From a virus: DNA of 64,000 nt. The notes under the pieces were generated by a model, which did no database searches, had not been told where the DNA came from, and worked only from the letters and a program-made list of their open reading frames with translations. Location of the stretch: positions 32,001 through 96,000 of IMG/VR virus record IMGVR_UViG_3300005077_000003; one strand, given 5' to 3'. The translations under genes and the position numbers were made by a program. Of the stretch, positions 17,682-64,000 are shown one piece after another. Within the stretch, counting starts at the first letter, position 1, and every line of letters starts with the position of its first letter.

Positions 17682-17696
17682 GTTACCTAGGCCAAA

Positions 17697-18539: not shown

Positions 18540-18552
18540 GTGGGGGCAGCTC

Positions 18553-18750: not shown

Positions 18751-18900
18751 TGTATTGCCTCCTATGGCTATGCTTTCCATGTACACATTACCTAGTGTAC
18801 GTGTGCCATCGTACAGGCACAGGCTATAGCACACACTGTGTGTACTATAGTGCAGGCAGTACTTATATAGCACCCTGCCCTTGGCGCTTAAGCATATTAG

Positions 18901-19160
18901 AAGGGGGGGGGTGGGCGTGAAATGGGGAGATCCATCTCACAAGAAGCCCAAGTAGTACTATCCCTACCAATTAAACTACTATTTTCCAGGTATTAAGGCC
19001 TCCATCTCTCTTAAATTACTTTTTATGGGTATTAAGGCAAAATTTATTGTTTAAAATAATAAGAGTGGTGGAAATTTATATATTAGTTGTAATTTTTAGG
19101 GCATTAAGCGTTTATACCGATATCTTTTTAGGTTGCCCGCCAGTTTTTAGGGTTAATTAG
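18901..19160. promoter_or_regulatory. divergence point: G-run plus iteron-like repeats (possible terminus/pac/origin)
   Basis: G9 run at 18903-18911; three GG(T/C)ATTAAG motifs and TTTTTAGG motifs; strand switch and abrupt GC drop. Confidence 0.45.
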
Positions 19161-42510: not shown

Positions 42511-42523
42511 GGAGGATTGAACT

Positions 42524-43195
42524 ATGGCTAGTACATTAGATAGTTATACTAAGAGCTATAACTCATTCTCTGGTGCTGATATGGTTGTAACCTTCGGTAA
42601 ATATATTATCGGAGAGCTACAGGGTATATCATATACAATACAAAGAGAAAAGGCTCCACAGTATGTACTAGGTCAATCTGACCCAGTATCATTTTCAAGA
42701 GGGAAGCGCGGGATAGCAGGTTCTTGTGTATTCCTGGTATTTGACCGGTCTGCATTACTTGATGCGTTCCAGGATACGCCATTCTTAGCATGGGAGCATG
42801 AATTTGCTGCACTCGTATCCGATCCAATAGTAAGTGCGCCCGTCCTGATAACAGCAGGATTAAGCAGTGCTTCTTCTGGGTATGGTCAACCTCAAACCGC
42901 CAACTCTTTTGCGGTTGCTAATTCAATTCAAATTAGCAAAATACTTGCGCGCCCCGCTTACCATGACCAAGTATTACCATTTGAAATAGTGGTTACTGGT
43001 GCAAACGAGTATGGTGCTACAGCATCCATGAAAATACACGGTGTCGAAGTCATCAATGTCGGCTCCGGGTTCTCAATTGATGATATGCAAATTGATGAAG
43101 CTTGTACTTGGATAGCCAAGGGTATTACCAACTGGCGTCCAGGAATACAAATACATATTCCTAACTATACTCTACCTACTACTATCGCTGGCTAG
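42524..43195 (+). CDS. tail tube protein
   Basis: SFSGADM, GELQGISY.IQREKAP.YVLG, GKRGIAGS; follows the sheath. Confidence 0.85.
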   Translation: MASTLDSYTKSYNSFSGADMVVTFGKYIIGELQGISYTIQREKAPQYVLGQSDPVSFSRGKRGIAGSCVFLVFDRSALLDAFQDTPFLAWEHEFAALVSDPIVSAPVLITAGLSSASSGYGQPQTANSFAVANSIQISKILARPAYHDQVLPFEIVVTGANEYGATASMKIHGVEVINVGSGFSIDDMQIDEACTWIAKGITNWRPGIQIHIPNYTLPTTIAG

Positions 43196-45239: not shown

Positions 45240-45874
45240 TGGAAAACAATGTACTGGATAAGTACACAGAGCTAATACTTCAAGGTAACAAAGACATATT
45301 TATTACCGAACTCGGGGGCTTGTCATTTATTTGCAAGCCCCTTACTTATTATCAGTATAAGCTTTGTTTAGATATAGAAAAGAATGTGGGCGCACCAGAT
45401 TCTAATGAAGCCATTCTAAAATTATCAATTATATTTCCAGAAAGGAATGAGTTAGAAAATTGGATAGATAGCACAAACGCCTGTTTCCCAGATATATTAG
45501 CAGATAAAATCCTAGCTAAATCTAGTTTTAAAAGCCAAGAAGATATATATAGCTTATATCTTTCATCCAGGGATGATGTTGAAAAAGACTTTATTGGCTT
45601 AGCACAAATATATATTTGCACCGCATTTAAGGCCATATCGCCAGCAGATATAGATAAAATGCCAATGAAAGATATTATGTGCCTACTAGTAAAGGCAGAA
45701 GAAGCTTTAGGTAAAAAGATTAATATAGAAGAATTATTTAATATAGAATCAGAAGGTAAACAAAAAATACCTATTCCTCCAGGAATGGAGTCAACTGCTT
45801 TTGATCCTTTCTCTAAAGAGTATATGTTAGATCCAGATAATGCGAGCCCAATACCACCAGAGGCATTCAGATAA
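45239..45874 (+). CDS. putative tail assembly chaperone 2
   Basis: FICKPLTYYQY parallels the previous gene; position. Confidence 0.6.
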   Translation: MENNVLDKYTELILQGNKDIFITELGGLSFICKPLTYYQYKLCLDIEKNVGAPDSNEAILKLSIIFPERNELENWIDSTNACFPDILADKILAKSSFKSQEDIYSLYLSSRDDVEKDFIGLAQIYICTAFKAISPADIDKMPMKDIMCLLVKAEEALGKKINIEELFNIESEGKQKIPIPPGMESTAFDPFSKEYMLDPDNASPIPPEAFR

Positions 45875-48800
45875 TGGCCAGGCAAGGAGAAGAGCCTAGG
45901 TATACTGGTCCACGCGAGGGTGAACTAGAAGCCTATAATGCAGAAGTAGATCAGGCCAATGAGCGTGATGCTAGTTGGCTAGCCAAAATAGCTATAATAG
46001 GTTTTGGTACACACGTACTAGGAAGGGCAGTTGGGCGAAATATAATTGCTGATATTATCCACACTGGTGGATTAATGTCCAAGTGGGCTGGCGGCCTCTA
46101 TAAGAGAAAAGGCAAATCTTTATTAAGACCAGAAGTATACAATAGAGTTGCTAGGGCTATTGATGATAATAGTGGCGTTTCTGGTGAGGTAATAAAAAGA
46201 ACCTGGGAAGGTTCAAACCTAGAAGAAATAGAGGGCGTAAGAAGGCTAATAGAGATGTCCTCTATTATAGGGGATCCTAAAAATATTACTTCCCGCCCTA
46301 GACTAATAGAGTTTTTTAAAGAAGAGCTCGCCAGAGATGCGCGGGTTCTTCAAAGACCAACACCTTTACAAAAAGAAATGTCGCATAGCCTAGATAGGCT
46401 AACCTTTGGTGACATTCTAGAAAATGAATCATATTTCTTTAGACCAAAAGAAATAGCAAAGTCATACCAAATAGAATCTATTAATCTTGCAATAGATCAA
46501 GGGCTTATAACAAAAGAAACAGTAGTAGGACCAAAACTATTTAAGCGCCTCGATAAACAAGGCAAGTTTGCATCACTAATAGATTTAAGACTTACTGATC
46601 CAAGATATGCACTTGAAAGTGCAGCTAAAATAGTTGGCGACGTAGCTGGTATATTTAGGGGTTTCGCGTCTTTATTTGGTAATGCCAGAACATTAGCTGA
46701 ACTACCAAGCGAGCATCCAGGTGGACCGCTAAGGGTATTTATAAAAGGACAAGCCGATTCTGCCGTAGCACCGCGCAGACCAACAATAAAAGGTCCATGG
46801 AATGATGCAGATGTATTAGCTTTTGATATAGAGACAAACAAAGCCAAAGCAATTAATGATGTAACAAAATTGCATATGGTTTCTATCGCCGCCAAAGAGA
46901 AGGGCGGAGCATGGAAGAGCTATACATTCTGGGATGATACTGCAGTAACCCACCCTGATGTTGTAAGATCTGGCAGTATACAAGACGCCTTAGATATACT
47001 AGAGGCTCATAAGGGTACATTATTTGGCCATAAGATTTTAGATTTTGACTTACCCGTAATTAAAAACTTACGCGGTGGGCTTACTATAGAAAGCGGCGCA
47101 GAAATAAGGGATACACTAGAAATGTCCCACGTTGCTTTTGGTACCTTTAAATCTGGAAAGCTACGCGAGATAGACAGACTAGCAGCTATAGGAAAAGAAC
47201 AAGAGTTCTCTGGACAAGTTCTTCATAAAATACCAAGCGAAATGAGGGGGAGACATTCCCTAGAAGCTTGGGGGCAAAGGCTTGGTAAAACTGCAAAACT
47301 GGAATATAAGGGCGACTGGTAAGCCCTAACGCCAGATATGCTTAAGTATGGATCGCATGATCCAGTAGTAACTGGTGACCTATTTGACTTTCTCAAAACA
47401 CTAGCTAAACCAACACATAAAGAAGTAAGCGCCACTGCTTCTATTGCTAAAAAAGCAGAAGACATTAAAGGAAGTGTCGGTAGAGTATATGAGTTTGTTG
47501 GTGATGAGCCTCCAAAACTAGTAGAATCTGGTGTTCGTCTTGGAGAAACCGGAGATATATTGTTCAAGCCTTCTGTTCTTAGAAAGCTCCATAGAGAAGG
47601 CAAATTAGAATCTATTTATACAAAACCCGGCCCTAATGCTACTTGGCTCCAAAAGTTACAACACAAGGCTGGTATAGGACCAGAATTCCAAGAGCGACCT
47701 GGTGGCTTTGTTCAAACACTATTAAGAGCAGTTAGGTCTATAAAGGCAATACATACTGGTGAAGCAAAGTTTGCTGGTAAAAGATATAAATCTAGTCCAA
47801 GCTCATTATTAAACGTTGTAGCTGGCAGCACAATACCACTAGAGGAAAGACTGCCTGAATATATTTCTCGTGGTAAATATTATAAACAAGCCGGTGAGCC
47901 AATAAAACCCGGGTTCTTTGATAGGATCAAAGCATACTTAGGGATATCTGAAGACGTAGATATAGTAAAAGCATCAGCTTTTGAGCCAGGTCGTATGCAA
48001 ATAGAAGCAGCAGATCTGCTAATCCCTCCAAAAACAGGTGGATTAAAACCACTTACTAAATCAGCATATTCTGCTACAGAAAAAACAATTGGCCCAACTG
48101 GAACGTTATCAGCCAGAAGAACTTCAGAATTTTATACTTCTAGTGCCAATCCTATAGATAAGCTATATGATTTTGCAAACTATTTAACAATAAGATTAAA
48201 TACATTAGCTAGCAGCCAAATGCTTGGCATAGGATACCGCGCATCAGGTAGCCTTACTGCTAATGCATTAAGATTGGCGGCAATCCCAGCAATATATATA
48301 GCTGGTACTGAAGCAATAAAATATGCTGATTATGAAATAGGCGAGCTAACAGGAGTCCGCCCATCATTCTTGGTATCAGATTTATATACTAAAGCTAGAG
48401 TACTACAACAGCAAGCAAGAGAAACCACTGGAATACGTAAAGGGGCAGAGACATTTGAGCTTACTTTCCCAGGCATAAGTGCCGGCCTAGCAGGAACAGG
48501 GCTAGCAGCCTTAGGCGCATTTGCTACCCTAAAAGGCACTGGATCATTTAAAGCCGCAGCTGCTGCTGGCGCCGCCATTTATTCATTGATAGGCGGCCCA
48601 GATGTAGCTCAAAAGCCAAAAGAATTAGAAGAGGAATATGAAGGCATACGCAAAGTGCCAGTAAGGTCATCTTCCTATTGGTTACTGGGATACGCTCCTT
48701 TTATTGGCGGCCACATAACCCACCATGAGCCAAGTTGGTATGTAAAACACAAATCGCAAGCGTATAAAACAAATATATATGGATCTGAAAAAGAATATTG

Positions 48801-51243
48801 GTCCAGCGGCACATTCTTACCAACGCCACAAAATTGGTTTGGTTTAAAAAATATAATTGATCCATATAAATTAGAAAGGGAAAACTACTACAGAAGGCCA
48901 TACCCTACTACTGCTGGCTGGGGAGAAGAGTTCCCAATTATTGGCCCATTAGTAGCAGATACAATAGGTGAGATATTTAAGCCTCGTGTAAGAATGCATG
49001 AGGAAGACAACCAACGTGTTGTAATAAGCAACTTACAACAAAGAGGTGCGCCAAAAGATATTGCATCATATCTCGGTATACCAGAATTGCCAGTATCAAT
49101 TGTAGAATATGGCAAACCTGAAGTATTAAGAGAAAGGCTTAAAAAATATGCAAATGTCGCTTTAGAGCCTGCTGGTATATGGAAGTTTGCTTTACAATAC
49201 TTTGGTATTAGTTTTGACGAAGGATATGAGGAAGCTACTGCTTCTAATATGGGATCCATATCAAGAAGATTCTATGAAGCAAACCTGGGCGGGGCATTCG
49301 GAGAAAGTGAATTCCTTAGGCGCTTCCTACTATCTGATTATGGTAGGGCTTCAAAGTTCAACCAACAATTAAATCCAATACCAAACTATCTTCCTAGATG
49401 GCTACCTGGATCATTAAGCAACTTCGAAGAAGACAGAGCTGCATTCTATGATTTTTCTCTTGGAGATGCATATACCAAGATACAAGGCGGGGAATATAAT
49501 TTACCTGGTGTTGGATATGAAAGCTATACTCCGCTACACGGTAAAGAAGCAGAAAGAGAAGAAGAGAAAATTAAATTTACTGCTAGAGTAGTTAAAGTAG
49601 TTGACGCTGATACTGTTGATATATCAATTAATGGCGGCAGACAGCGTATACGTCTAGCAGAAACTATGGCTCCAGAGAAGAATACGACAGAAGGTCAAAT
49701 TGCTATAGCAGCAATGAAATCTTTGTTGTCTCCTGGTGACAATATAACAGTAGAAACTACAAGAGACGAATTTGATTCTGGTGAATCTCAAGGCCCTTAC
49801 GGACGGACTATCGCGCGTATTTGGAAGAATGGCCTGTCTATTAATAGGGCAATGGTAGACTCTGGACACGCTACACAAATAGATTCAAGCTATGATGCAG
49901 TAGACAGATTCTTAATACTATCCAATATAGCACCATTCTCAAGAGCTTACAAAGATGCAGAACGCCAAGTTCGCCATATGCATCTTACAGAAGATTGGCA
50001 GGCCAGGGTTAATGCTGCCTATGAAGAAAGAGAGGCAAAAGTAGATAGGTTAGGGCTAAAAAAGTACCTACAAGAAGAAGCCGAAGCAGCTAAATTAAGT
50101 CCTCAACTAAGAGTCATAAGAAGTACATATCAATCTGTACATGAGAATCTACTTTCAGAAATACCAATAGTTGGATCAAAGTTTTTCCCAAAAAGAAATC
50201 CAGTTGATTTATATAGGAAGTTTGAAGTAGAAGGATCTGGCTTTGCAAACTGGGAAGAGCCATATGAAACCATATTACGCCCAGCTATATATGATATAAT
50301 TGGAAACAACCCAGTAATAGCTACAGCAAAAGCAGGTGGTTTAACTTGGCTAGCATCATCCTCTATGGGTAAATGGCTAAATCCAATAAGCGCCTTAGCA
50401 TATCCAGCAAATAGAGCTGCCACAATAGCAAGTGCCGCCGCAGTAGGTGGCGCGTTGTCAACTACAAGAATGGTTGCTACCGGCAAACTGGAAGGAGGAT
50501 TTACCCCGCCTCATATTGAAGAAGAGAGAGAAGTAGAAGAATATTTTGATCAACTAAAATATTTAAAGCATAGAAACTTAGAAGAAGCCGCTAATGATGA
50601 ACAGGCATACCATGTAGCAAACTATGCTAAAAAGCAATCGCGCAAAACATTGTTATATGGTCTACATGCACTAGAAACTAAAGGAAATATATTTGCTTAT
50701 AAAGGAGCACTTAAATCTAAAGAGAGGGCTTACTTTGAGGCCTTTGTAGAGGCTCCAGAAGAGGACAGGAGTGACATCCTATCAATGACCCCTGACCATA
50801 TGAAACGCGCGCTGGAAGCAATATGGGACCGCCAGCGTAAAGATAGACCGCCCGTAGAAGAACAGGCAGAACAATACTGGGATAAACATGCTATGCCAAA
50901 GCCGACGTGGATAGGTTGGCACCCAGATATTGATGATGATGAGGTAAGAATAAAAGCTATTGAGGGTGGCATAAATGGTATTTCTGATAATTTACAAAGA
51001 TTTGGTTATTTCCCCTCACAAAGAAGAGAAGTAAAAGCCAGATTTGGCTACCTTACTTCGCCAGTAGATGATATACATCCAGCAAGTAAAACATTTGAAT
51101 TACCATGGAAAGTTAAGAAGAGAGGAGGAAATATACTTAGCGAGTTCAATTTTGGTGCTGGCGCTGCAATTAATTTATCTAATATTAATATATCAGATGA
51201 TCGCAGTGAAGAGATAGCCTATTTTGCTAATTATATTAGATAA
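45874..51243 (+). CDS. tape-measure-like giant virion protein with embedded DEDDy exonuclease and SNase-like domains; one in-frame TAA at 47320-47322
   Basis: ORFs 45874-47322 and 47338-51243 are in the same frame; the stop falls inside the exonuclease domain and there is no SD before 47338. Confidence 0.75.
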
Positions 51244-54200
51244 TGAGTATAATAAATGAAATTATAGCATCCCTGATAGGTGATGAAGGGAAAGCTGCAA
51301 TAGGCTATGCTTCAGTAAGCACGAACAGGGTTAGACCTGCTCTAGACAAAGTAGGCATAGAGGCATCTCTTGGCAGTACCAGAGTAAAGTCTATTAGGGC
51401 AAAACAGTACTTGACTACTGATTTTGGTGAGTCTAGAACAGCGTCTACTTTAGTAAAACAGATTGGCATTAAAATGCCAGAGACGCTTACTTCTGTTATT
51501 GGGAAAACAACAGAAGAAAATATACCAAAAGCTCTGTTTGTATACGACGTAGAATTCTTTAAGAGAGCTGCTCTACAAACTGGCGCTAGGCCAAAAAGTG
51601 GTATGGCGCATCTTATAGATGTAAAGCAATTAGTTTTACAAACACTTCCAGAGCTTGCTCCCCAAAACACAAGGATTGAGAACGTATATAGGGCACTGGG
51701 GTTAAGGGGCATAAGCATCCCCGAAGGTAGGGAATTTTTTACAAATAAAGAACGCCTTCAAGCAGTAGAAGAAATAGTACAAGAGGTTTTTTCAAGATCT
51801 CCTGTAGAAGCAAAAAGATTTTTAGAAAGATCTGTCGGACGCCGCTTTGGGATAAATCCACTTGATAAGTATGCCTCATTAATTGATGAGCACCCTTTAC
51901 AAAAGCTTATTGGCCCGGAAACGCTTAACGTAATCCCAGTTAAGAATAAGCTAAAGTCAACTGTACATGTAAGCAACCTAAAATCTCTTAATGAGGGATT
52001 AGTACCGATATTAGAATCTAGGTTTGGGAAACCATTTGCGGAAACATTCAAAACCTTTTCGCATAGATTATTTGAAAGCGTTGACCGCCCAGGAGACGTA
52101 TCCTTCTTACTAACAGGCGGCAATAGACTATTTGTTGGTGTTACTGGTGTAGCCAGTACATACGAAGAGCTTCCTACCCAAATAGGCGGCCTTATAGGCT
52201 ATAAAGGCAAACTGGCTTCTGCGCGCAATATTCTTATAGAGTCAAAAGAAGAAGGCGTTAAAGGAGTAAAAACACTAACAGAAGCTTTCTTTGATGAATT
52301 CATTAAGGGCGTAGAAGAGTATGGAGAAGGTGGTAAGAACGTTACCGCCGCCTTAGAAAAAGGTAGAAAACAAGCTCTTGGTACAGAGCTTTTACCAGGC
52401 TTAAGATTCAAAGATATCAAGGGAGCAGTATCCACATATGGCGATATAAGTTTCCATCAAGCTGCATATATGCAGCACTCTCTTGTAGTTGGCAAAGAGT
52501 CTATGCCACTGCTAGATGAGGAGATTAGGGAAGCTTCACTTAAGGCACAAACATTCCAGGTTACTAAGGAAAGTACTACAGAAAGACTATTAAAAGCACA
52601 AGAAGCAGATCTCGCTAAGCTTGAAGCCAAAGGTATAGAACTCCAAAAAATAACTGGAAGTGATGTTACCATAGGCAAAGAAGGGTATGAAATGATAAGC
52701 AATAAAACAGGCTTATCATTAGCCCCATACTCTTCAATAAGATCATATTTCCCTCCTGGTGCACAAACAGAAAGAGATCTATCAAAGGGAGCCTATCAAC
52801 TAGGTGGTATCAAGGAGACGTGGGAGCCACTAAGACATAGAGTTTTAGAACTTACCAGAAGAAGGCTAGGTCTCACAAGTGCACATCCAGTAGGTACTAC
52901 AATAGGAGTAGTGTCCGAAGAGCAGACTATGCACCAAATGCTTAAGTCTGCTACTGGGAAAGCTGTGATCGAAAAGCCGCTACTTATGTGGCAAGGCTTA
53001 ACCACAGTAGTAGCTCCAGGAGAAAGCCTAAAAGTAAGGAGCATGCTTGGTGATCAAGGTGCTATACTTACTCCTATAGGAAGATTATCTACTCAGAAAA
53101 GAAGAGCACTAGTAGGTACTGAAGCCGCGCTCAATGCGAGCGATTTAATAGATACTATTCGCACCCTTGCTGGGGTAAGAAAAGGAGAAGAATTACCTAA
53201 ACAGTGGAGCAATATATTAGAAAAAGCTCTACAGCAACAAGAGGTCTCTATTAGAGATATTGGCGAAGGTATAAAAATAAAAGGGAAAAGCTCTCTTGTT
53301 CCAAGGGGTGCAGAAGTACTTACTGGCATCTCATATGACGACTGGAATAAAGTATATAAATTTAATTGGAAGACCAAAGCAGGTAGCACATTAACAGAAG
53401 CCTTATTACTAGACAATCAAAGAATAACAGCTAGCGTAGCTGGTGAGTCTTTTCTAGAAGAGCTATTCGGAACTAAAGCCCTAAGAAGTGATATAATCAC
53501 TTCTTCTGAAACCTTTGCAAAAGCAGGTAAAGCCAATATACTTTATACACATATGCTTGGTCTGCTTGGCACCGAAAAGCTACAAAAAGCTGGTGGTGTA
53601 GCAAGGTTCTTAAGGTTATATGAAAAGCATGGCGGTAAGGGATTAGAAAGGGTAGGCAGAAAACAGCAGATCATAGCGACTTCTGAATTTTCATTTAAAA
53701 ACTTCCTTAGCCAAGGTGCTATAGAAGGGCCTGCTGAAAAAGCTCTATCTGAAATGGGCGCATCAGTAGCGCAAATATATGGACTTGCTAAAAGCTCTAC
53801 AGAGTATGGGGAGAGTATATATGAACTTTTCCCGCAAGCTATTAAGCCTGGTCCTAAAGGACCAGAAGTAAAAGGCACTATTTTAGATGAAATAGGAGCA
53901 AAAACTCTTCCTACTTTAGAGGAGCTTAGAGAGGTATCTATGAAAAGCAATATGTTTGCTTTCATAACCAATATGGCAAATAGAACCTCTGAAGTAACTG
54001 ACTTCTTAAATTCTGAAAAGTCATTTAGAATGAGACTCTTTACTTTGCATCAAATGGGTCAATCTCTACCAACTATGTTTGGCCTAGAAAATCCAATGCA
54101 ACATCCTATATATAGGATGGAAATAGAACATCTACAAGAAAGTGTGCCGGGATTAATCTTGAATCCTAACGCCAAAGCAGCTATTGGGAAACCAGGAGGA

Positions 54201-56663
54201 GAAGCTTTCGTAAAACAATTACCAAGAGACATTAAAAATGTGGCATATGCACTCAAATTACCTGCTCTTGAAAAGCTGAAAGTACGTGGCGGCAAAAAAT
54301 ATTTTAAAGGTGTAGAGGTATTAACAAGACAAGAGGCCGCAGAAAGATTCATAAATGCTCCTGGCGGTATAAATGTACAAATGTTAGAAGGAGAAATGAG
54401 TGCCAAAGAGCTTTTTGAAAAAGAGCTCTTAAGAAAGGAAAGACCCGGGTTCTTCCTTCATACTGGAGATACGCCATGGTTTGCGCCAGAAAACCTCGAA
54501 GCAGAAGGCAAAGTTATGAAGGCCTTGCCAGTTAGGGGTACATATATACCGTCTGGTGAAGAACTAAGAAGAATGATAGGACAAGGGGAATTTCCAAGAG
54601 GATCTCTGCTGCATTCTATGGTATCATTGCTACAGCAACCTAATGCAGTATATGGAGCCAAAGAACCTAGCGCAGCAACTAGTGTTACAGTAAGAGGTGC
54701 ATTTGAAAATGTATGGAGGTGGTGGGCTAAAGCTGGAGCAAAAGGCGGCTATTTCCATGAAACTAAGCTTACTAGCAAAAAAATGCCTGGCTCTGCCAGG
54801 GTCAGGCTAACACAGAAAATAGCAAGTAATCGTTCAGAGTTTAATCTTATAAACTCTATGGAGGACATTTATTCCGTTAAAATACAGAAAGATACTCTCC
54901 ATAAAATGGCAAAAGAAATTGCAATAGCTGAGGGTGCAAAAACTCCAGAAGAATTACTTGCAATAGAGGAAGACCTTATTGAAAAAGCATCAAAAGGAAA
55001 ACTATATGGCGCAGTTACGCCAAGACCTCAACATGCTCCATCACATCAAAGGCTGGTAAAATTACAACTTATAAAAGAAGAGGTTACAAAGAAATTAATA
55101 TATGCTGATCAGGCTACTGCAGGAGTTAGTCCATACTTGGCACACGAACTAAGTAGAGACTTTGACAAGGACGCAATAGAAGTTGCAATAATAAGAGCTA
55201 GGCATCTCAAAGGAACTGTCGACCCAGAAGAACTTATAAAGAAGCAGTATGAGATGTCTGCATCACAAAGGAAGCAGTTTGATAGACTAAAAATAGAAGC
55301 AGATAAAGCTCTTTCCACTATAGAAGAAACATTGGAAGGGGCAACAAAAATAGAACAAAAACAGCTGCTAAATAAATATGCGCTAAAGTACTTTGCATTT
55401 GGTAGGACCCCGGCCCTATCACAAGTAGGCTCTTGGACAACCCTTGCATTTGCTCAAAAGATAGCTGATACGGCTACTAGTGAAAAACAAATTGCTGAAG
55501 AGCTAAATAGATTGTTTACAATTTCTGCTGGCGGTGAATATACAGAAGGAATCATACAAAGATATAGAGATATTTTAGGAGAAGGGTCCGAAGCTGGATT
55601 TGCTGGTAGAGTAGAGCGCGCCATAGAAATGTATAGAACTCCATTCCAAGGCGCTCTTACAAAAGCAGGAGAGATTAAAGACTTGCTTGATGATTTCCTA
55701 AATATTCCCGGCATTATTAAAGAAAGAGCAGAATCTTATGTAGTTGGTAAGGAAAAACCATTAATAGAAGAAACCATAAGTATGGTTGAAGAATATCTAA
55801 CTAAAGCCCTTGGAGCTACAGATGAGGAAGTTCTTGGAAATATAGCCACAGGATATGGAGAATACTACGTAAGAGAGGCAGCAAAATCAGCAACTAGTGG
55901 AGTCAAGAAAGCCATCACCAGATTAGCGGCAGAAGATCTTGGCACCGTTATAGGCGTTTCTGCTATTGCAATGCAGAGACATCACGGCGGGAGAGTAATA
56001 GGTAACCCAATGAGAGACGCTTTCCAAAAAGTAAAAGGATCAATGGCGTCTCTGTGGTCGTTTGTTACTGGTGAACCAGTTCAAAATATTAGAGAGTCCA
56101 TGGTAGAAATTGCTATGGAACATAGCGATAGATCTGCTGAAGAACTTGGCGAAAAAGCTGCCAAGGTCATGGAAAAGACCATAGACAAAGCAACCACTAA
56201 AGCCAGCAATATTCTGAAAGATTCAGAAGTACTAAATGATATCTCTGCGAAGATGAAAGGTAAGTGGGGATTAGTTGCTGGTATAGCTGCCGGGCTATTT
56301 GTTTTGCGAGAGTTAAGCGGAATAGTTTCTGATGTTGGCGGGTTTGCCGGCGGTAGTGCTCCTATCCCAAGACAGCCACTGCTGTCATTCCCAGAAGTGC
56401 ATAATTTATTCGATAGCCAACAACCTACTGCCAACGTAATGCCGGTTGAAGGATATAACTCTTCACTAAACTATCAAGGTGGTGGCTATCAAGATGTTGA
56501 AGATATCACAGATAATCTAGGTGAAATCACAAATAGAGGTGCCAACTTCTCTAATATAAATATCAGAGATAGCAGAAAATACTCTAGTAATTTTGCTATG
56601 TCACAAGCATACAAGAAACAGGGTGTTAGTGATTTTACACACCAATATCAATATAATCAGTAA
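51243..56663 (+). CDS. 1806-aa giant virion protein, candidate single-chain two-barrel RNA polymerase
   Basis: KGGYFHETKLTSKKMPGSARVRL and GVSPYLAHELSRDFDKDAIEV resemble beta-prime motifs; upstream beta-like segments. Confidence 0.65.
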   Translation: MSIINEIIASLIGDEGKAAIGYASVSTNRVRPALDKVGIEASLGSTRVKSIRAKQYLTTDFGESRTASTLVKQIGIKMPETLTSVIGKTTEENIPKALFVYDVEFFKRAALQTGARPKSGMAHLIDVKQLVLQTLPELAPQNTRIENVYRALGLRGISIPEGREFFTNKERLQAVEEIVQEVFSRSPVEAKRFLERSVGRRFGINPLDKYASLIDEHPLQKLIGPETLNVIPVKNKLKSTVHVSNLKSLNEGLVPILESRFGKPFAETFKTFSHRLFESVDRPGDVSFLLTGGNRLFVGVTGVASTYEELPTQIGGLIGYKGKLASARNILIESKEEGVKGVKTLTEAFFDEFIKGVEEYGEGGKNVTAALEKGRKQALGTELLPGLRFKDIKGAVSTYGDISFHQAAYMQHSLVVGKESMPLLDEEIREASLKAQTFQVTKESTTERLLKAQEADLAKLEAKGIELQKITGSDVTIGKEGYEMISNKTGLSLAPYSSIRSYFPPGAQTERDLSKGAYQLGGIKETWEPLRHRVLELTRRRLGLTSAHPVGTTIGVVSEEQTMHQMLKSATGKAVIEKPLLMWQGLTTVVAPGESLKVRSMLGDQGAILTPIGRLSTQKRRALVGTEAALNASDLIDTIRTLAGVRKGEELPKQWSNILEKALQQQEVSIRDIGEGIKIKGKSSLVPRGAEVLTGISYDDWNKVYKFNWKTKAGSTLTEALLLDNQRITASVAGESFLEELFGTKALRSDIITSSETFAKAGKANILYTHMLGLLGTEKLQKAGGVARFLRLYEKHGGKGLERVGRKQQIIATSEFSFKNFLSQGAIEGPAEKALSEMGASVAQIYGLAKSSTEYGESIYELFPQAIKPGPKGPEVKGTILDEIGAKTLPTLEELREVSMKSNMFAFITNMANRTSEVTDFLNSEKSFRMRLFTLHQMGQSLPTMFGLENPMQHPIYRMEIEHLQESVPGLILNPNAKAAIGKPGGEAFVKQLPRDIKNVAYALKLPALEKLKVRGGKKYFKGVEVLTRQEAAERFINAPGGINVQMLEGEMSAKELFEKELLRKERPGFFLHTGDTPWFAPENLEAEGKVMKALPVRGTYIPSGEELRRMIGQGEFPRGSLLHSMVSLLQQPNAVYGAKEPSAATSVTVRGAFENVWRWWAKAGAKGGYFHETKLTSKKMPGSARVRLTQKIASNRSEFNLINSMEDIYSVKIQKDTLHKMAKEIAIAEGAKTPEELLAIEEDLIEKASKGKLYGAVTPRPQHAPSHQRLVKLQLIKEEVTKKLIYADQATAGVSPYLAHELSRDFDKDAIEVAIIRARHLKGTVDPEELIKKQYEMSASQRKQFDRLKIEADKALSTIEETLEGATKIEQKQLLNKYALKYFAFGRTPALSQVGSWTTLAFAQKIADTATSEKQIAEELNRLFTISAGGEYTEGIIQRYRDILGEGSEAGFAGRVERAIEMYRTPFQGALTKAGEIKDLLDDFLNIPGIIKERAESYVVGKEKPLIEETISMVEEYLTKALGATDEEVLGNIATGYGEYYVREAAKSATSGVKKAITRLAAEDLGTVIGVSAIAMQRHHGGRVIGNPMRDAFQKVKGSMASLWSFVTGEPVQNIRESMVEIAMEHSDRSAEELGEKAAKVMEKTIDKATTKASNILKDSEVLNDISAKMKGKWGLVAGIAAGLFVLRELSGIVSDVGGFAGGSAPIPRQPLLSFPEVHNLFDSQQPTANVMPVEGYNSSLNYQGGGYQDVEDITDNLGEITNRGANFSNINIRDSRKYSSNFAMSQAYKKQGVSDFTHQYQYNQ

Positions 56664-59600
56664 TGACCTTAAATATATTTGATGAGACTGGTATTGAAAG
56701 ATCTGAGCAGACTCTTACCAGTGAGCAGCTAGCTGCAGCGCATGCTTCTACTAGGAACCTTGGTACTCCTATTAGAAGTACGTATAATACTCCATCTACT
56801 AATAGAAACAATCCAGTACTACCACCTATCAAACATACTGTTTACGGTAAAAATCCTGGTTCATTAGCTGCCAAGGATCAAACCTTTTTACAGATAGGAC
56901 CACATATATATGGTGGTGAAGTACAGGATATACAAATATTAGAGAATAAGGCAGTCGCACAATTTCTTGGTGTTAGAACATCAGCAGACTTTTTAGTTGA
57001 TAGCGGAGATGGTGATGCAAATATAGTTATTAGTTTACTATTTTCTGGAGTAGAACATATCTACTCTGGTTTAGTACCACTTATAGCTTTATTTAAAATA
57101 TCTCCGCTAACAAGTATAAAAAATGAGATGATAACATCATCTCTATCAAATGAATTTGTTGATAATATTGCTGATGGTGCGACAAAGCTTGCTCTAGATA
57201 AAGCTGACGAAATAATAAACAAAGCTTCTTTATATGAAGCATCAAGTATATTTATAGAGAATATTAGGCCATATTATGATGGCATACTCCCACAGGTTGT
57301 TAATTTAGAGTTTTTTAACAGTTTTAGAAATAATCAAGATTATAATAAACTACCCATGTGGGGTTACTATAACTGGGATACTTATGATGATTTTATTAAC
57401 TATAAAGCATTACCAAGATACAGCAACTCTGAAAAACTTAAATTAGCTTCTTCGGAAGAATATACTGAAAAACTTAAGAAGAAGCTAGTAAACAGAAAGC
57501 CCTCTAATTTCGTTCCGGTAGCTTTTACTGATATAACAATACAAACACATACTGAACTATCTGATACACTAATAGCCCGCTTAGTGTTTAAGAGGGTAGA
57601 TGTTTCTGCTTATAGCTCAACTAGTTTATTATATAGAAGTGCTAACAATACTCCTACAGATGATCCATTGAACGCCTATTGGCTACGTAGGATGCTAGAT
57701 CTTTATATAAACAAGTATTTAGATAAGAGCTATGTATTTGCTAATATGGGAGATGGGATAAGTGAAGAAGTATCACTAAGGTTTGCAGGCAATGATATAG
57801 TATTAAATATATTTAAGAAAGAATATAATCTAAATAATCTTGTGGTACAAGATACAGGATCAAATAGAGATTCTGTTGTAATGCAAATGCAAATTGCATA
57901 TGGTAATAAATTTTCTTTTGTAAGAAGGGCGGGTACAAGCTTCCCAACAGCACAGTTTATGGGCTATGGTAGTGGCACCTGTGCGATGGCTATAAAAACA
58001 AAGTCTGCTGAAAAGTTTAAGTCCATACATGCATACAAATCTGCCGCCGACTTCTTTATAAGAACACAAGATAGATTTGATAGATTTACTGGTTGGGAAA
58101 TAAGATCATCAATAGTTAAGATGTTTAATACATCTAGCTTACCCAATTCTTTACCAAATAAGCCAGCAGAATTTAAATCAGCATGGTATCCAATACAAGT
58201 ACAGTCATCTACTGATCCAGATTATCCTAATGTAAAAAATATATCTATAACATTTAAAGAAACAAACCCGGATTTCTATTCTGATTTTGGATTTTCAGTA
58301 TATAGAAAAGGATATCGCCTTGATAACCTAAGAGATTTCTTTAATGAAATATGGGATAGAGCAGTAAGGTATAGAAAAGGTGAGGGAGATTCTTTAGACA
58401 TTACTGCACATACAGCAGTATTTGGTACAGGAGATCCATATGAACTAGAATACAGTATGGTTAATGAAGATACTATAGCTGCTGTATTCTATAACGCATA
58501 TAGATTTAATACAAAAAGTCAATACTTCTCTCCAGAAGCTAATGATATTAGTGAAAAACTTTTTTCAAGACTAATGTACAGTAAAAAGTTTTCTGGATTT
58601 GAAGGATCATCTGTTACACTACCAGAGCATTTAAATAATGAACTTGGAGAAATCTTATCTCCTTTTGAATTAACTAGTGATTTTGAACTTAATAATGAAA
58701 CATTTGCAAATCTAGCTACTCTAGTAGCTGACTATTATTTTGATGTAGATGACACAGATGTATATAATGGTCTTGTAAATGCTATAAATAAAGTAGCATC
58801 TGGAGAATCTGGCAGAAGGAGTTTATATTCATATATATACCAACACATGGATATATTAATGAATAATGAATTTAGAGACTCTCTGTTTGCAGTAATCGCC
58901 AGAAGACCAAAGCCAGAAGTTAATGAGCATCAGTATAGCCTACACGGACTAAGTTCTGCGTTTTCGACACTGTCGCTTGTTTTGGAAGCAAAAGGTAAAG
59001 AACTATTAAGTGACGAATCCTACAGTGCACTATCTCAAACAAAAAGAGATGAAACAAAAATAATATTGGATTCTAATAATACGCAATCTAGAACAGAAAC
59101 CGCAACAGCATATCCAGATTATTTTAGAGCCACTTATGGTGAGCTGTTTAATGTTGTAGATGGCAACCCATTATATTGGAAAAACTTTGCCCCTACATTT
59201 CAGGATATGGGCATAATAAATGCCGATCCAAAGTTCTTAGAAAAGTATGATAGTTTTACAGAGTCGTCTGTTAAAGATGCGCAAAATCAGACTATAGCTA
59301 CTATAGATAGTCCAGTACCACCAAGTATAATATTCTATCACGAAAGATTATTAGACAAAGAGTTTATGCATCAGGTAGATGAAGATGTGTCTAACTATCA
59401 TGACAAACTTTCTAAGATGCGCATGTATATATCTTTTGATATACAAAAAGTATTAAAAGATGAATATGGCAGATATCTTGGGGAGAATGAAAACTTTGAC
59501 CAGTCTAAAATAGACGGATTAGCTGACGTAATAGAAAAAGGATTACAAAAACAAAACTCTTCTAAGAGCAGACAAGACTATATCAAATCAGGCGGTTTAC

Positions 59601-62600
59601 TTGTAAATGATTTACTTGATCAATACAGTAAGCAAAGGGGGGTTGATAGAACCGAAGTAATAAAAAAAGATTCATCATATAGAGCTGAATTTGAAAAGCA
59701 TATTAGAGATATACTTGATGGTAAAATAGAAAATTACAGTGATTATGATTTTAACAAAATATTGACCCCATTCTTAATTGGTACTAATATAAATGCTCCA
59801 GTAGCAAAGTGGAAATCATATTCAAGCGTTATTGGCGAAGGTATATCCAGAGGAATACTTAAAGGTGCTGGAGCAAACGTAGACTTGTCATCGTTTTTAG
59901 ATAATACATTAGTAACAACTGAAAATGGTGGTGTTACTCTTTCATGTGCAAATAGAGATGAAGAAAGAGTATCTATGTTAAAAATTATGCAGCGAGTCGC
60001 TGATAATTCATACTCTATGATAAGAGCATTCCCAACTATGAGATTATATCTTATAGAATTTCTTGGGCCTAGAATAATAGTACAAGATAACTTTTGGGGA
60101 TATAATGCTATTATATCTATGGACATAACTCTTGATAAAAATGATGCAGATCTAGCTGTAATAAGAATAGCCGACCCCTTCCACATATTACAAGGTTCCG
60201 CATTTGGTTCTGAATGGGCTGGTGGAGATACTGTGGTTGATCATATAGCTGTTCCAGTAACAAATGATGATCCATCACAAGGAAATATACTAGAAAGAAT
60301 AAAACTAAAAGTTGGTAGAGCAATTCAGATACGCGGCGGCTATTGCGTGGACGATAGGACCGAAATTCTCACACAAAGAGGATGGCTTACAAAGGACGAG
60401 TTAAAGGTTGGCGATATGTCTCTAACTCTCAACCACAATACCGGCTTATCTGAATGGCAGCCAGTAAAAGAGATCCACGTTTTTCAGCATGATGGCCCAA
60501 TGGTCTCTATAGATGGCAATAGGCATTCGTCTCTAACAACTTTAGGGCACAAATGGCCCGTCATCTATAAATCCAGAATGATAAATAGAAAGACCATCAA
60601 AAAGGTTAGAGAGTGGACTACTTCTGAGAAATTAAATGGCGCCCACATTCTTATCGGCGGGGCGAAGCATAATAGCGATATAAAAGAAAAAGTATATAGC
60701 GATGCCTTTGTTGAAATAGTAGCATGGTTTTGGACAGAGGGAAATATAAGAAACAATATAGGAATAAAAAGGGCTCCTATTATTAGGATATCTCAATCTC
60801 CTACTGCTAATCCAGATAATGTAAAAAGAATAAGTGCAGCTCTGGAAAATGAGTTTGGTAAACCAAGTGATAATATTAGTTCTGGTAATAGAATATCTCT
60901 GGGTGTCCCAAAATGGAAATCAAAAAAAAGACGTACTAGGAATGAGATTGTATTTAGTTTGAATAAAGCTGCTTCTGCTTTAATACTAAAGGTTGCACCA
61001 GGCAAGGTAGTGTCTAAAGAGTTCATACTTCAGCTTACCCAAGATCAGCTTGAGCTATTTGTCCAGATCTCTAACAAGGCTGATGGTCACAATAGTAAAT
61101 TAAATGATAAAATACTATTGTCACAAAAAAATCCTAAGTTTTTAGATGCGCTGGAGCTCGCAGCTATTCTCGCAGGATATAGAACTCATAGATACTTTGC
61201 AAAAGCAAGCTGTCAAGATCGTAGAGGTAACTGGTATCATCCTGATAGACTAAACATAAGCCCTAAAGTCAACATTTGGGTTGATACTTCTAGACCTGAA
61301 GTAGTAAACTACAAAGGCATTGTATGGTGCCCAACAACAAAAAATCATTCGTGGATGGCACGCAGAAATGGACACTGCTATTTTACCGGGAACAGTAGTG
61401 ATCCTGAAAACTTAGATATTATATTTACAGGTAGAGTAGCTGAAGTAGAATATGGAGATATCATAACTATAGCGGCACAAGGCTGGAAGTCAGAACTATT
61501 AGGTAGAACAGTAGAATTCCAGCTTAATAATAGGAATGAAAGTTCTGTTAAAGATTTAGTTGTAACGACTATTCAAAAAGCTTCTCCAGGAGGAATTGGA
61601 GAAGAATACTCTGGCAAAGTCACTGACGTTCTTACTTCAATAGGAGGTAATCTGCCAGCATCTCAAGCTATATTTAACTCACTACTAAACAGTAGCGGGA
61701 CTGCCGTAGGAGTCCCAGGTTCTGGCGGGACAGCTGGTATAGGTACTATTATAGGCAGCTGGAGATTCCTTAAAAATCTAGGGATGGGCCTAGATACTAG
61801 GCTAAGAAACATATGGATACCAGATAAAGACAGGACGCGACTTGACTATTTTGCAGATATATCTGATACAGGTTGGGAAGGCAAACACTGGGTATTCCCG
61901 CCTACGGATGCGTGGGAGATATTACAAAAAGCCACTAATTATACATGGAGATATATTTGTCAAGTAGTACCATATGAAGGAGAAGCCACATTATTTTTTG
62001 GGAGACCAGATCAACTCTATTACCATAGAGACGTAGATACTCGCCAATATCAAGCACAGGATAAAAGAAGAACTGCTTATAAAACAGAGTTGACAAAACT
62101 AATATCTGAAGTGATTGAACAATGGTATTCTACGTTAAACCCTGTTGTATCAAATAAATATTCTGATGGATATGAAAATCCAGGCGTAACGCTTCCCGCC
62201 CTTAATAGAAATTCGTATTATCCTTTATTTAAAGCTAGCTTCTATAAAAATTCAATATGGGATGTATTTAAATCATATAAAGACTTAGCAACCATATATA
62301 AAGTAGAAAATAGCTGGATTGCTCAAGCATCAAAGGACATATTAAATGTAGATGTTTATAATGATTTTGAAACTATTATAGAGTATTTTGGTGATCCAAT
62401 AATCATATCTAAGTTACTTCTTGTAGAGTTCTATGGGCTTAATTATGATTATGTAGAACAATATTTAGAACCTTATGTTTTATCATCTGTTATAGCTAGA
62501 AAGCTAACTGAAAATGACCTAATATCACTAAAGAATACTTTAGTTGAAGAAACTAATAATAACAAAGTTAGTGATGTTTTAGAAAAAATAAGTGCTTTAC

Positions 62601-64000
62601 CACAACAAAAAATTATTGAGGCTCAAGAGTTTTTTAAATCAATTCCTCAATCTGTAAGAGATATTAGGATAATATCAGTAGAACCAGGAGGTAGGTTTGA
62701 AAACAATATAATAGTTAAACTTGAAGAGTATGATAGTGATTTAGATAGCTATATTAATAAAACTAATGATTTTATTAATTATGTACGGAAAACTTCAGTT
62801 GAAAATCCACATTCTATAGCCTCAATACAATTACGGAATCATCTTTTCAGAGATAAATATATTTCTGTACCATCAAATGCTAAAACTAAATTACATTATG
62901 ATATATTGGCTGTTTTATCTGTAGGTTCTACATTTGGTAGAATTATACATATAGCAGAAGAATATGCTAGACTAAACTATAATCAACAGAACTTAGTAGA
63001 TACTGTCAATATAGCGCAGAAATTTATTCCGCTATCTAACTCTCCTTCTATATTATCAAAAGATAATCTTGGTGATACTAAAGATACGTCAGAGTATATA
63101 ATATACTATATGCCATTATACAAAGTATTTATACATAGTTTTGCCGAATTCTTAAGAAGATCATCAAGTAGTGGAAATACTAATGTAATTGACCCAATTA
63201 ATAAATTTAGATCTATTAGCACATTCCCGTTTGATAAAGCACTAAACATGAAAGTGTTTAGGGATTATCATTATATTAATAACTATGATGATATTATAGA
63301 AAACAATATATCAGCAAGCACCAGAGAAATGTTTAATACAGTCTTGTTGAGACATCCTGGTGACTTAGAAACTACGAACTCTAATTGGTATGATATATCA
63401 GATTTTTTTGGCAGTGGAAGGCAGAACTTTGATTCTGTAGAAATATCTGGTGATACAGAATGGCGCACATGGCCAGAGTCAAAAGACTATGGGCAAATAG
63501 GGCTGCAATTCCAACCAAACATAATACTACAAGAAAAGAAGGTCGCAGTATATAGTGATCTAAACGTTCATAGGAGGGACCAAGCTTCTAAGGTAGCTAC
63601 TAATGTTCTTGCAAAAGTAATGCGCCCAATGTATAGGGATAATTTGCTTATACTTGGTAGAGTTATAAAACCATGGGATGTAATATATCTTAAAGATGAC
63701 TATAATGATATGTATGGCCCACTAGAAGTAGAAAGGGTAGTACATCATTATAGTGCAGAAACTGGATGGGTAACCAATATAGTTCCCCACTTAATGTGTG
63801 AAGCGAACCCCGGCAATAGTGCTGTGCAAATTGCTTTGTTTAATAATAAAATAGATAAAATATTTAATCTAGTTGATTACGGCCTTTGGGCGTTGACAAT
63901 AGCATCAATGGGATCTGCCTTAGGAGTAGCTGGCATTGCAGGAATAGCCAAGAGCTCATATGCTGCCGGTTCAAATAGTTTTAAATATATTCTTGGTAAT
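56663..64000 (+). CDS. giant baseplate-hub-like protein with intein (>2400 aa, runs off window)
   Basis: TAATG-coupled start at 56663; same frame open wherever spot-checked to the end. Absent from the track, consistent with no in-window stop. AIQIRGGY..IIFTGRV and IKPWDVIYLKD..LEVERVVHHYS hub-like motifs. Confidence 0.8.
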   Translation, partial: MTLNIFDETGIERSEQTLTSEQLAAAHASTRNLGTPIRSTYNTPSTNRNNPVLPPIKHTVYGKNPGSLAAKDQTFLQIGPHIYGGEVQDIQILENKAVAQFLGVRTSADFLVDSGDGDANIVISLLFSGVEHIYSGLVPLIALFKISPLTSIKNEMITSSLSNEFVDNIADGATKLALDKADEIINKASLYEASSIFIENIRPYYDGILPQVVNLEFFNSFRNNQDYNKLPMWGYYNWDTYDDFINYKALPRYSNSEKLKLASSEEYTEKLKKKLVNRKPSNFVPVAFTDITIQTHTELSDTLIARLVFKRVDVSAYSSTSLLYRSANNTPTDDPLNAYWLRRMLDLYINKYLDKSYVFANMGDGISEEVSLRFAGNDIVLNIFKKEYNLNNLVVQDTGSNRDSVVMQMQIAYGNKFSFVRRAGTSFPTAQFMGYGSGTCAMAIKTKSAEKFKSIHAYKSAADFFIRTQDRFDRFTGWEIRSSIVKMFNTSSLPNSLPNKPAEFKSAWYPIQVQSSTDPDYPNVKNISITFKETNPDFYSDFGFSVYRKGYRLDNLRDFFNEIWDRAVRYRKGEGDSLDITAHTAVFGTGDPYELEYSMVNEDTIAAVFYNAYRFNTKSQYFSPEANDISEKLFSRLMYSKKFSGFEGSSVTLPEHLNNELGEILSPFELTSDFELNNETFANLATLVADYYFDVDDTDVYNGLVNAINKVASGESGRRSLYSYIYQHMDILMNNEFRDSLFAVIARRPKPEVNEHQYSLHGLSSAFSTLSLVLEAKGKELLSDESYSALSQTKRDETKIILDSNNTQSRTETATAYPDYFRATYGELFNVVDGNPLYWKNFAPTFQDMGIINADPKFLEKYDSFTESSVKDAQNQTIATIDSPVPPSIIFYHERLLDKEFMHQVDEDVSNYHDKLSKMRMYISFDIQKVLKDEYGRYLGENENFDQSKIDGLADVIEKGLQKQNSSKSRQDYIKSGGLLVNDLLDQYSKQRGVDRTEVIKKDSSYRAEFEKHIRDILDGKIENYSDYDFNKILTPFLIGTNINAPVAKWKSYSSVIGEGISRGILKGAGANVDLSSFLDNTLVTTENGGVTLSCANRDEERVSMLKIMQRVADNSYSMIRAFPTMRLYLIEFLGPRIIVQDNFWGYNAIISMDITLDKNDADLAVIRIADPFHILQGSAFGSEWAGGDTVVDHIAVPVTNDDPSQGNILERIKLKVGRAIQIRGGYCVDDRTEILTQRGWLTKDELKVGDMSLTLNHNTGLSEWQPVKEIHVFQHDGPMVSIDGNRHSSLTTLGHKWPVIYKSRMINRKTIKKVREWTTSEKLNGAHILIGGAKHNSDIKEKVYSDAFVEIVAWFWTEGNIRNNIGIKRAPIIRISQSPTANPDNVKRISAALENEFGKPSDNISSGNRISLGVPKWKSKKRRTRNEIVFSLNKAASALILKVAPGKVVSKEFILQLTQDQLELFVQISNKADGHNSKLNDKILLSQKNPKFLDALELAAILAGYRTHRYFAKASCQDRRGNWYHPDRLNISPKVNIWVDTSRPEVVNYKGIVWCPTTKNHSWMARRNGHCYFTGNSSDPENLDIIFTGRVAEVEYGDIITIAAQGWKSELLGRTVEFQLNNRNESSVKDLVVTTIQKASPGGIGEEYSGKVTDVLTSIGGNLPASQAIFNSLLNSSGTAVGVPGSGGTAGIGTIIGSWRFLKNLGMGLDTRLRNIWIPDKDRTRLDYFADISDTGWEGKHWVFPPTDAWEILQKATNYTWRYICQVVPYEGEATLFFGRPDQLYYHRDVDTRQYQAQDKRRTAYKTELTKLISEVIEQWYSTLNPVVSNKYSDGYENPGVTLPALNRNSYYPLFKASFYKNSIWDVFKSYKDLATIYKVENSWIAQASKDILNVDVYNDFETIIEYFGDPIIISKLLLVEFYGLNYDYVEQYLEPYVLSSVIARKLTENDLISLKNTLVEETNNNKVSDVLEKISALPQQKIIEAQEFFKSIPQSVRDIRIISVEPGGRFENNIIVKLEEYDSDLDSYINKTNDFINYVRKTSVENPHSIASIQLRNHLFRDKYISVPSNAKTKLHYDILAVLSVGSTFGRIIHIAEEYARLNYNQQNLVDTVNIAQKFIPLSNSPSILSKDNLGDTKDTSEYIIYYMPLYKVFIHSFAEFLRRSSSSGNTNVIDPINKFRSISTFPFDKALNMKVFRDYHYINNYDDIIENNISASTREMFNTVLLRHPGDLETTNSNWYDISDFFGSGRQNFDSVEISGDTEWRTWPESKDYGQIGLQFQPNIILQEKKVAVYSDLNVHRRDQASKVATNVLAKVMRPMYRDNLLILGRVIKPWDVIYLKDDYNDMYGPLEVERVVHHYSAETGWVTNIVPHLMCEANPGNSAVQIALFNNKIDKIFNLVDYGLWALTIASMGSALGVAGIAGIAKSSYAAGSNSFKYILGN
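60344..61393 (+). mobile_element. intein (350 aa) with LAGLIDADG-type domain
   Basis: Starts CVDDRTEILTQRGW, ends VWCPTTKNHSWMARRNGHCYFTGN followed by Ser; blocks AWFWTEG and ISNKADG. Confidence 0.93.

Follow-up and report, generated by a model that had tools for sequence, protein, structure and literature searches.

The 64,000-nucleotide (nt) window analysed here, bases 32001-96000 of the 177,611-bp IMG/VR virus record IMGVR_UViG_3300005077_000003 of an uncultured phage (estimated completeness 92%), carries among its tail genes a gene, P0001, for a protein of 1806 amino acids (aa), which the initial annotation had put forward as a single-chain two-barrel RNA polymerase (RNAP) of the virion. 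Virion-delivered two-barrel RNAPs have been characterised in few systems, namely the multisubunit enzymes of PhiKZ and AR9, gp66 of the crAss-like phages and gp96 of P23-45, and the question raised by this locus is whether P0001 belongs with them. On balance we favour the reading that it encodes a single-chain two-barrel nucleotide polymerase of the beta plus beta-prime type, most likely a DNA-dependent RNAP, delivered with the virion by the mechanism proposed below. Fold-level homology to the two-barrel RNAPs is very likely, an active metal-dependent polymerase is likely, and a role as a virion-delivered early transcriptase is plausible; activity, location in the virion, the type of template and product, packaging and ejection are what we infer from the observations that follow.

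Residues 460-1400 were modelled using AlphaFold2 without templates from an alignment of 25 sequences (model 1; mean predicted local distance difference test score (pLDDT) 75, predicted template modelling score (pTM) 0.59). Foldseek searches of the PDB with model 1 gave 71 matches at E<=1e-3, all of which were largest RNAP subunits, the top match being the AR9 non-virion RNAP (6e-6). An exhaustive VIA-align comparison with 48,161 representative chains placed second-largest subunits at ranks 1-9 over residues ~490-920 (Z 9.0-11.2; 235-328 aligned residues, root-mean-square deviation (rmsd) 3.7-6.6), these nine including the subunits of Pol IV, the plastid enzyme, Pol I, vaccinia, Pol III, AR9, ASFV, Xanthomonas and PhiKZ, while ranks 10-15 were six largest subunits aligned over residues ~1000-1386 at Z 7.3-7.9, a range (7-8) that, by the tool's own caution, can arise for unrelated folds. 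The case for the fold rests on each half matching the correct class of subunit, on the two halves standing in the correct order, and on the invariant residues lying in the predicted catalytic loops. Below these in the VIA-align ranking stood QDE-1 at Z 6.4, double-psi barrels either isolated or designed (Z ~6), P23-45 gp96 (Z 5.7) and P74 gp62 (Z 5.1), and plant RDR2 was also found among the structural matches of model 1. Re-alignment of the top 1000 Foldseek chains yielded 393 with a Z of at least 8, the best being 12.3. A second, independent model covering residues 1150-1806 (pLDDT 60) matched 11 largest subunits over the catalytic barrel (Z 8.1-9.0). Two double-psi beta-barrel modules, beta-like and then beta-prime-like, are thus present in the predicted models, and in these only, as the initial annotation had anticipated; structure searches returned RNAP subunits almost exclusively, and the modelled order of the modules is that of the single-chain two-barrel RNAPs.

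Two further structural databases were searched with the model. Every row of matches in the ESM Atlas carried PF00623 and/or PF00562. In BFVD, the two best matches, A0A8S5SD80 and A0A7R7G2L5 (E 2.6e-13, a 'minor tail protein' of an uncultured siphovirus, and E 4e-12, an unnamed viral protein), spanned the whole 941-residue model and were far better than any annotated RNAP, so that tail-encoded one-chain polymerases may exist in further lineages. These two were followed by RNAP subunits of phages and giant viruses. Weak BFVD rows comprised proteins of Microcystis phage Ma-LMM01 and Acinetobacter phage ME3 (probabilities 0.38-0.66); the transcriptome paper on Ma-LMM01 reported only sigma-70-like promoters. 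PolD-type DNA polymerases, phi14:2 gp66 (6VR4) and YonO were not among the structural matches listed, though a relationship with them may nevertheless exist.

The conservation of the candidate catalytic residues was assessed in a family of homologues. When residues 400-1500 were compared exhaustively by phmmer with 1.84 billion cluster representatives, 25 proteins were recovered, most of them 1700-1870 aa long. The family is a small metagenomic one of some 25 clusters at the 50% identity level, the members being 19-30% identical to the 1806-aa protein. In the 19-sequence alignment used for counting, 31 columns were invariant, and eight of these lie within residues 1262-1310 (P1262, H1264, H1268, V1272, R1305, D1306, D1308 and D1310). 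The motif DFDKD (residues 1306-1310, nt 55158-55172) stands within GVSPYLAHELSRDFDKDAIEV at residues 1294-1314. Its three aspartates, whose conservation across homologues the initial annotation had set as a test, are invariant in 19/19 sequences and lie in a predicted loop between a short helix and a strand, as in NADFDGD of beta-prime. The family consensus, YG...P.P.HG.GH...VK ... nRD.DkD.I, follows in the model a strand-loop-strand and strand-helix-loop-strand layout, as does beta-prime NRAPTLH ... NADFDGD. A lone DxDxD is expected by chance about 0.3 times in a protein of such size, and both giant neighbours also carry one, so that the motif is not significant alone; its weight comes from the family alignment, that is, from invariance at 19-30% identity. 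The lysine at its fourth position is compatible with catalysis, since the non-virion RNAP of AR9 is active with DDDKD at this motif (PMC5449584). Upstream, KGGYFHETKLTSKKMPGSARVRL occupies residues 1167-1189 (nt 54741-54809), where position 1167 is K or R in most family members, G1169 is conserved and R1188 is invariant, and these residues fit the pattern of beta-prime K-Q-G-R-F-R ... S-G-R-S-V-I, as the initial annotation had proposed.

In the beta-like half, an invariant lysine, an acidic position and an invariant arginine (K515, residue 604 and R727, the last at the start of a hairpin strand) follow one another as Rpb2 R766, D837 and K987 do, with roughly similar spacing. From its motif, K515 would be the equivalent of the nucleoside triphosphate (NTP)-contacting R766. 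Residue 604 is acidic in 19/19 sequences (17 D, 2 E) and in the model follows a helix and precedes a strand, as in N-x-E-D-S; D604 is plausibly the fourth metal-binding acid, equivalent to Rpb2 D837 or beta D814. A weakly matched PAS/LOV-like insertion sits between this acidic motif and the basic hairpin, at the position of the flap or wall domain of beta/Rpb2. The motifs quoted in the initial annotation are present where it had placed them, SLAPY at residues 492-496, GLTTVVA at 585-591, LGDQGAILT at 602-610, and the others likewise. Of the segments which it considered beta-like, SLAPY and GLTTVVA proved not to be conserved, whereas LGDQGAILT is (family FGDAGA..T), as is HMLG at the end of DIITSS... 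(family f.HRTGLLG); in the segment DIITSS...THMLG, aligned there with DIVLNP...ETHLG of beta, H770 is nearly invariant.

Several observations weigh against this reading, among them the state of the eight residues described as common to all two-barrel polymerases (Ruprich-Robert and Thuriaux, PMC2919709). The three aspartates and the proline are kept, and the fourth acid plausibly so. However, in the RxP motif (Rpb1 R446 and P448) P1262 is invariant while the arginine position, part of TPRP at residues 1259-1262, is proline throughout the family (P-x-P-T-H), and R446 contacts the ribose of the incoming NTP (PMC2919709). In the basic loop (Rpb2 K979 and K987) the family alignment holds one invariant basic residue, R727, with no conserved partner; thus no equivalent of K979 was seen and K987 would be an arginine, and K-to-R changes at these two sites are lethal in yeast (PMC2919709). 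The caveat attached to the original proposal, that the RxP arginine is replaced and the two beta lysines are not clearly kept, therefore holds family-wide. The residue equivalences themselves are drawn from motifs and secondary structure, not from superposition. No bridge helix or trigger loop was identified after barrel A, where the helical residues 1330-1590 matched nothing specific. No sequence comparison gave a significant match to a known RNAP: an hmmsearch of PDB sequences with the family profile found no match, and hhalign of family sub-alignments against E. coli beta-prime gave a non-significant E of 0.15, the best local match, and the only sensible one, being to beta-prime residues 446-466 around NADFDGD. 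A recurrent promoter motif was sought by k-mer counts in upstream regions, and none was convincing. Finally, what would place the protein in the virion is gene position, synteny and composition only.

Other searches by sequence gave a similar picture. The 1806-aa protein had no Pfam match at E<=1, no PHROG match, no PDB sequence match by phmmer and no tblastn match in 50,697 phage records; hhalign gave no significant match to E. coli beta or to phi14:2 gp66, each used as a single sequence, and a search of the ESM Atlas by sequence features was uninformative. Word-indexed homologue searches returned one relative for the single sequence and none for the profile. Judged by these searches, the sequence family is unrecognised by current profile libraries, and the protein would be a very divergent, one-chain relative of the cellular RNAP.

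The composition and position of the gene bear on delivery. Cysteine is absent from all 26 family sequences, although at the genome average of 1.27% some 23 would be expected in 1806 residues, and the other structural genes have 0.1-1.4%. Three consecutive genes (482, 1301 and 1806 aa; 45874-51243 and 51243-56663) together encode 3589 residues without any cysteine. The RNAP-like gene and the giant genes on either side of it form a trio that recurs (~1440 aa, the RNAP-like gene, and ~2300-2600 aa) on contigs of three relatives (L004, L010 and L011) at only 20-24% identity, and in all three the gene directly upstream of the homologue is also cysteine-free (~1440 aa in L004 and L010, a truncated 519 aa in L011). 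In L004 and L010 the trio is followed by genes of ~370, ~146 and ~380 aa, of which the ~380-aa gene matches Baseplate_J faintly or weakly, while the contig of L011 holds only the trio and one further gene. The lack of cysteine would reflect a constraint acting on proteins which cross the tail and periplasm in an unfolded state. If so, zero cysteine, common to the RNAP-like and upstream giant genes, would mark in a simple way, from sequence, those proteins whose route leads through the tail.

In the mechanism that we propose, the tail operon would be expressed late, yielding the 1806-aa protein along with two further giant proteins, and the 1806-aa protein would be loaded into the particle, either in the tail lumen or as head-to-tail cargo. 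It would be ejected unfolded via the contracted tail and refold at or in the inner membrane, anchored by its C-terminal hydrophobic segment, where it would transcribe the first phage genes during DNA entry; a phage sigma factor would probably then direct the host enzyme to take on later transcription. In its fullest form this describes a lineage of large contractile-tailed phages whose cysteine-free cargo, encoded in the tape-measure slot, comprises an exonuclease-like protein, a nuclease-bearing giant and a one-chain cellular-type RNAP with a rewired active site (no ribose-sensing arginine, and a single arginine for two lysines), threaded unfolded through the tail tube and refolding in the host to begin transcription. 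This fuller picture we put forward tentatively, at slightly under even chances.

Could P0001 instead be an active two-barrel polymerase with another job or another chemistry, making primers, synthesising DNA or copying RNA like QDE-1, or one that is not packaged and merely co-transcribed with the tail genes? The replacement of the ribose-contacting arginine by proline across the family, the altered basic loop, and the presence of QDE-1 and plant RDR2 among the structural matches all speak for this, and although we consider it improbable it deserves some weight. However, the best and most extensive matches are to DNA-dependent RNAP subunits, including the N-terminal region of the largest subunits, and the switch-2-like K-x-G motif is regarded as specific to DNA-templated enzymes (PMC2919709). 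That the protein is borne by the particle is favoured by its strictly conserved place in the tail module and by its lack of cysteine.

It could also be envisaged that the protein is a structural or ejection component, part of a tape measure or channel, in which a polymerase-derived core no longer polymerises and serves in DNA binding or threading. An RNAP-like gene in the tape-measure slot, a C-terminal hydrophobic segment with a long helical region, and the absence of two of the eight canonical catalytic residues would all suit such a role. Yet the retention at 19-30% identity of the three aspartates, the arginine preceding them and the acid of the other barrel is hard to explain without metal-dependent chemistry, and the downstream 2613-aa protein with its lysin domain is the better tape-measure candidate, which makes this alternative rather unlikely. 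That P0001 is not a polymerase relative at all, its motifs being due to chance and its predicted fold an artefact, we regard as very improbable: the alignment is shallow (25 sequences), the pTM is 0.59, the catalytic loop itself has a low pLDDT and no sequence match is significant, but with two independent models and three search methods each half matched RNAP subunits, the order of the halves being correct, and the invariant residues fall exactly in the loops which the fold predicts.

Among known systems, P23-45 gp96 (PDB 8H2M/8H2N; PMC10770324), a virion two-barrel RNAP of a Thermus phage fused to the tape measure protein, offers several parallels. Like P0001 in our reading, it is a single-chain two-barrel enzyme encoded by a tail-module gene, associated with transmembrane segments and presumed to be delivered by the tail for pre-early transcription, and only around DxDxD does its sequence resemble other RNAPs; over barrel A the two align at Z 5.7 (99 residues, rmsd 3.1). 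In contrast, gp96 belongs to a non-contractile-tailed phage and makes up the N-terminal part of a tape measure of 5002 aa that also contains a metallopeptidase, whereas P0001, in a contractile-tailed phage, is a separate gene whose product has one hydrophobic segment and no peptidase and which lies beside a separate giant lysin-bearing protein. While gp96 keeps RxP and DFDGD and is without a clamp, the protein described here has PxP and DxDKD and a region matching the N-terminal part of beta-prime. Unlike in P23-45, no second (gp64-like) polymerase was found here by a DxDxD scan and a profile search of the genome.

The virion RNAPs of crAss-like phages (phi14:2 gp66, PDB 6VR4) are, as P0001 would be, giant, single-chain, two-barrel, virion-associated proteins with giant virion proteins as neighbours; the fourth motif position of gp66 is also not glycine (DFDID), and the host enzyme transcribes the later genes. 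No sequence relationship to gp66 is detectable (no tblastn match; hhalign P ~0.5), and gp66 is closest to QDE-1 whereas the 1806-aa protein is closest to multisubunit-type beta and beta-prime. Sheath and baseplate genes also set the present phage apart from the crAss-like phages. AR9 and PhiKZ (PDB 7S00, 7OGP) are contractile-tailed large phages which inject their polymerase, and AR9 beta-prime, the top Foldseek match (17-18% identity), comes from the non-virion enzyme that shares D-x-D-K-D with the 1806-aa protein, while the beta-like chains of AR9 and PhiKZ matched at Z 10.2 and 9.0, respectively. However, their enzymes are split into four or five Pfam-recognised polypeptides encoded outside the tail operon, whereas P0001 is one chain, without a Pfam match, in the tail operon. 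YonO of the SPbeta prophage and QDE-1 are, as here, single chains in which the beta-like barrel precedes the beta-prime-like one (QDE-1 aligning over 143 residues, rmsd 3.8), but both are much smaller, keep RxP and are not virion or tail proteins, and QDE-1 is RNA/DNA-templated.

In the literature searched we found no contractile-tailed phage described as having a single-chain two-barrel RNAP in its tail module. If correct, our reading would add such a family, one missed by profile searches, and in its fullest form a third, independent route to a virion two-barrel RNAP. A published survey filter, '[RK]xP x20-100 DxDxD', looks for the RxP arginine, which is absent from the family consensus. As this family has also been missed by profiles, phage-encoded transcription may be under-counted. 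The apparent tolerance for loss of two of eight 'universally invariant' residues would offer a useful natural experiment on which of them are truly required, on how small a catalytic site can be and on how the sugar is selected.

The remaining transcription genes were examined across the whole genome. Scanning with the Pfam RNAP models PF00562 and PF00623 detected none, while all control genomes were detected, and a second polymerase, or second member of the family, was likewise not found by the DxDxD scan of all long frames or by the profile search of the genome. Besides P0001, DxDxD occurs in the frame of a DnaE-like polymerase, in that of a repeat protein and in the upstream giant gene. Outside the window, at genome positions 24941-25111 on the minus strand, a 238-aa frame matches sigma-70 region 2 at 35.5 bits, which exceeds the Pfam cut-off and implies that the phage encodes its own sigma factor. 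This points to a later takeover by host RNAP, as happens in phi14:2 and P23-45. Repeated words in upstream regions, considered as promoters, proved to belong to hairpin/terminator units of a non-coding, GC-rich stretch.

The features of the locus are collected in the table below.

Table. Features of the RNAP-like gene and its neighbours, with positions in the window.
Feature	Position	Strand	Remarks
RNAP-like gene P0001, whole	51243..56663	+	1806 aa
N-terminal region, residues 1-480	51243..52682	+	family-conserved; invariant G156, G262, G299, G400
Predicted beta/Rpb2-like module with barrel B, residues ~490-920	52710..54002	+	VIA-align to second-largest RNAP subunits, Z 9.0-11.2, up to 12.3 on re-alignment
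t-K-G-x-Y-Q-x-R-G-x-x-E, invariant K515	52779..52820	+	resembles Rpb2 P-R-N-T-Y-Q
FGDAGA..T motif	53046..53072	+	D604
PAS/LOV-like alpha/beta insertion, residues ~620-715	53100..53387	+	VIA-align Z 4.3-4.8, weak
Beta-hairpin with invariant R727	53394..53438	+	candidate equivalent of K979/K987 basic loop
DIITSS...THMLG segment, residues 750-773	53490..53561	+	H770
Stretch aligned with largest subunits	54240..54737	+	VIA-align, model 540-927 vs largest-subunit chain residues ~13-800
Predicted beta-prime-like barrel A, residues ~1167-1320	54741..55202	+	largest subunits Z 7.3-9.0; isolated double-psi barrels Z ~6-7; matched residues 1180-1320
Switch-2-like K-x-G-x-L ... G-x-x-x-x-R	54741..54809	+	family alignment
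P-x-P-x-H-x-x-x-H loop (P1260, P1262, H1264, H1268)	55020..55046	+	counterpart of beta-prime N-R-A-P-T-L-H
Catalytic-loop candidate n-R-D-x-D-K-D (S1304, R1305, D1306, D1308, D1310)	55152..55172	+	
Helical region, residues 1321-1676	55203..56270	+	conserved F1386-G-x-x-P1390 and n..Q1469..I.K1474-G-G
Single hydrophobic segment, residues 1677-1695	56271..56327	+	family-conserved (NWK..G..G.L.GLR)
C-terminal tail	56328..56660	+	low model confidence; conserved APLPP.PMV, DSR.Y.SNWEMQ, SDF.H.Y
Tail sheath gene	40981..42510	+	
Putative tail tube gene	42524..43195	+	assigned by position
Upstream 482-aa gene	45874..47322	+	DnaQ-type exonuclease-like C-terminus; no cysteine
Upstream 1301-aa giant gene	47338..51243	+	staphylococcal-nuclease-like domain, residues 746-845; no cysteine
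Downstream giant gene, 2613 aa total	56663..64000	+	runs 504 nt past the window, ending at window position 64504

The start of P0001 overlaps the stop of the gene upstream and its stop overlaps the start of the gene downstream, so that it is translationally coupled to both neighbours. The prediction for the C-terminal 220 residues of its product is of low confidence. The sheath and putative tube genes (40981..43195) show that the locus belongs to a contractile-tail module; upstream of it lie, besides these two, the terminase, portal and major capsid genes, and the 2613-aa gene is followed on its 3' side by small genes and a baseplate wedge gene. With sheath, tube and baseplate-wedge genes flanking P0001, the proposal of a contractile-tailed phage outside the crAss-like group was borne out. 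Upstream, the 482-aa protein, encoded within the tail operon, matches over its C-terminal 170 residues the PHROG families DNA polymerase and DNA polymerase exonuclease subunit (DnaQ-like). The thermonuclease-like domain of the 1301-aa protein was supported by PDB phmmer (1e-7) and by a PHROG endonuclease match (7e-15), and the protein has its own DIDDD at residue 1197. Downstream, the 2613-aa protein contains 8 cysteines, and its residues 2195-2381 form an endolysin-like domain, with a weak hydrophobic segment close by at about residue 2410; it is likely the tape measure or hub, and as a tape measure, if fully extended, it would imply a very long tail.

Other features of the window were also observed. 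Directly 3' of the sheath gene, two adjacent plus-strand genes (42524-43195 and 43248-44141) both match PHROG 9206, which carries the label major head protein, and are probably tail tube paralogues. The large terminase (25433-28420, plus strand) is unusually long at 995 aa, and its phage matches fall in two separate blocks (~100-536 and ~425-895), which suggests an insertion or an extra domain. At 8812-9263 on the minus strand, Rfam gave a match to GOLLD RNA over the full model length (E 6e-41; 150.8 bits, where the gathering score is 150), and inside it, at 9129-9194 on the same strand, lies a match to the tRNA model that was not reported by ARAGORN. The stretch at ~14000-19000, directly before the point where two gene arms diverge, is GC-rich (up to 58% G+C against ~38% elsewhere) and has few convincing open reading frames. 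On its minus strand there are repeated units with GC hairpins (GGGGCATCCTCTTGTG...GCCCC) and hairpin/T-run terminator-like elements, examples of the repeats being 16815-16858/17236-17279, 17621-17659/18480-18518 and 18019-18046/18754-18781, and the stretch possibly encodes several structured RNAs.

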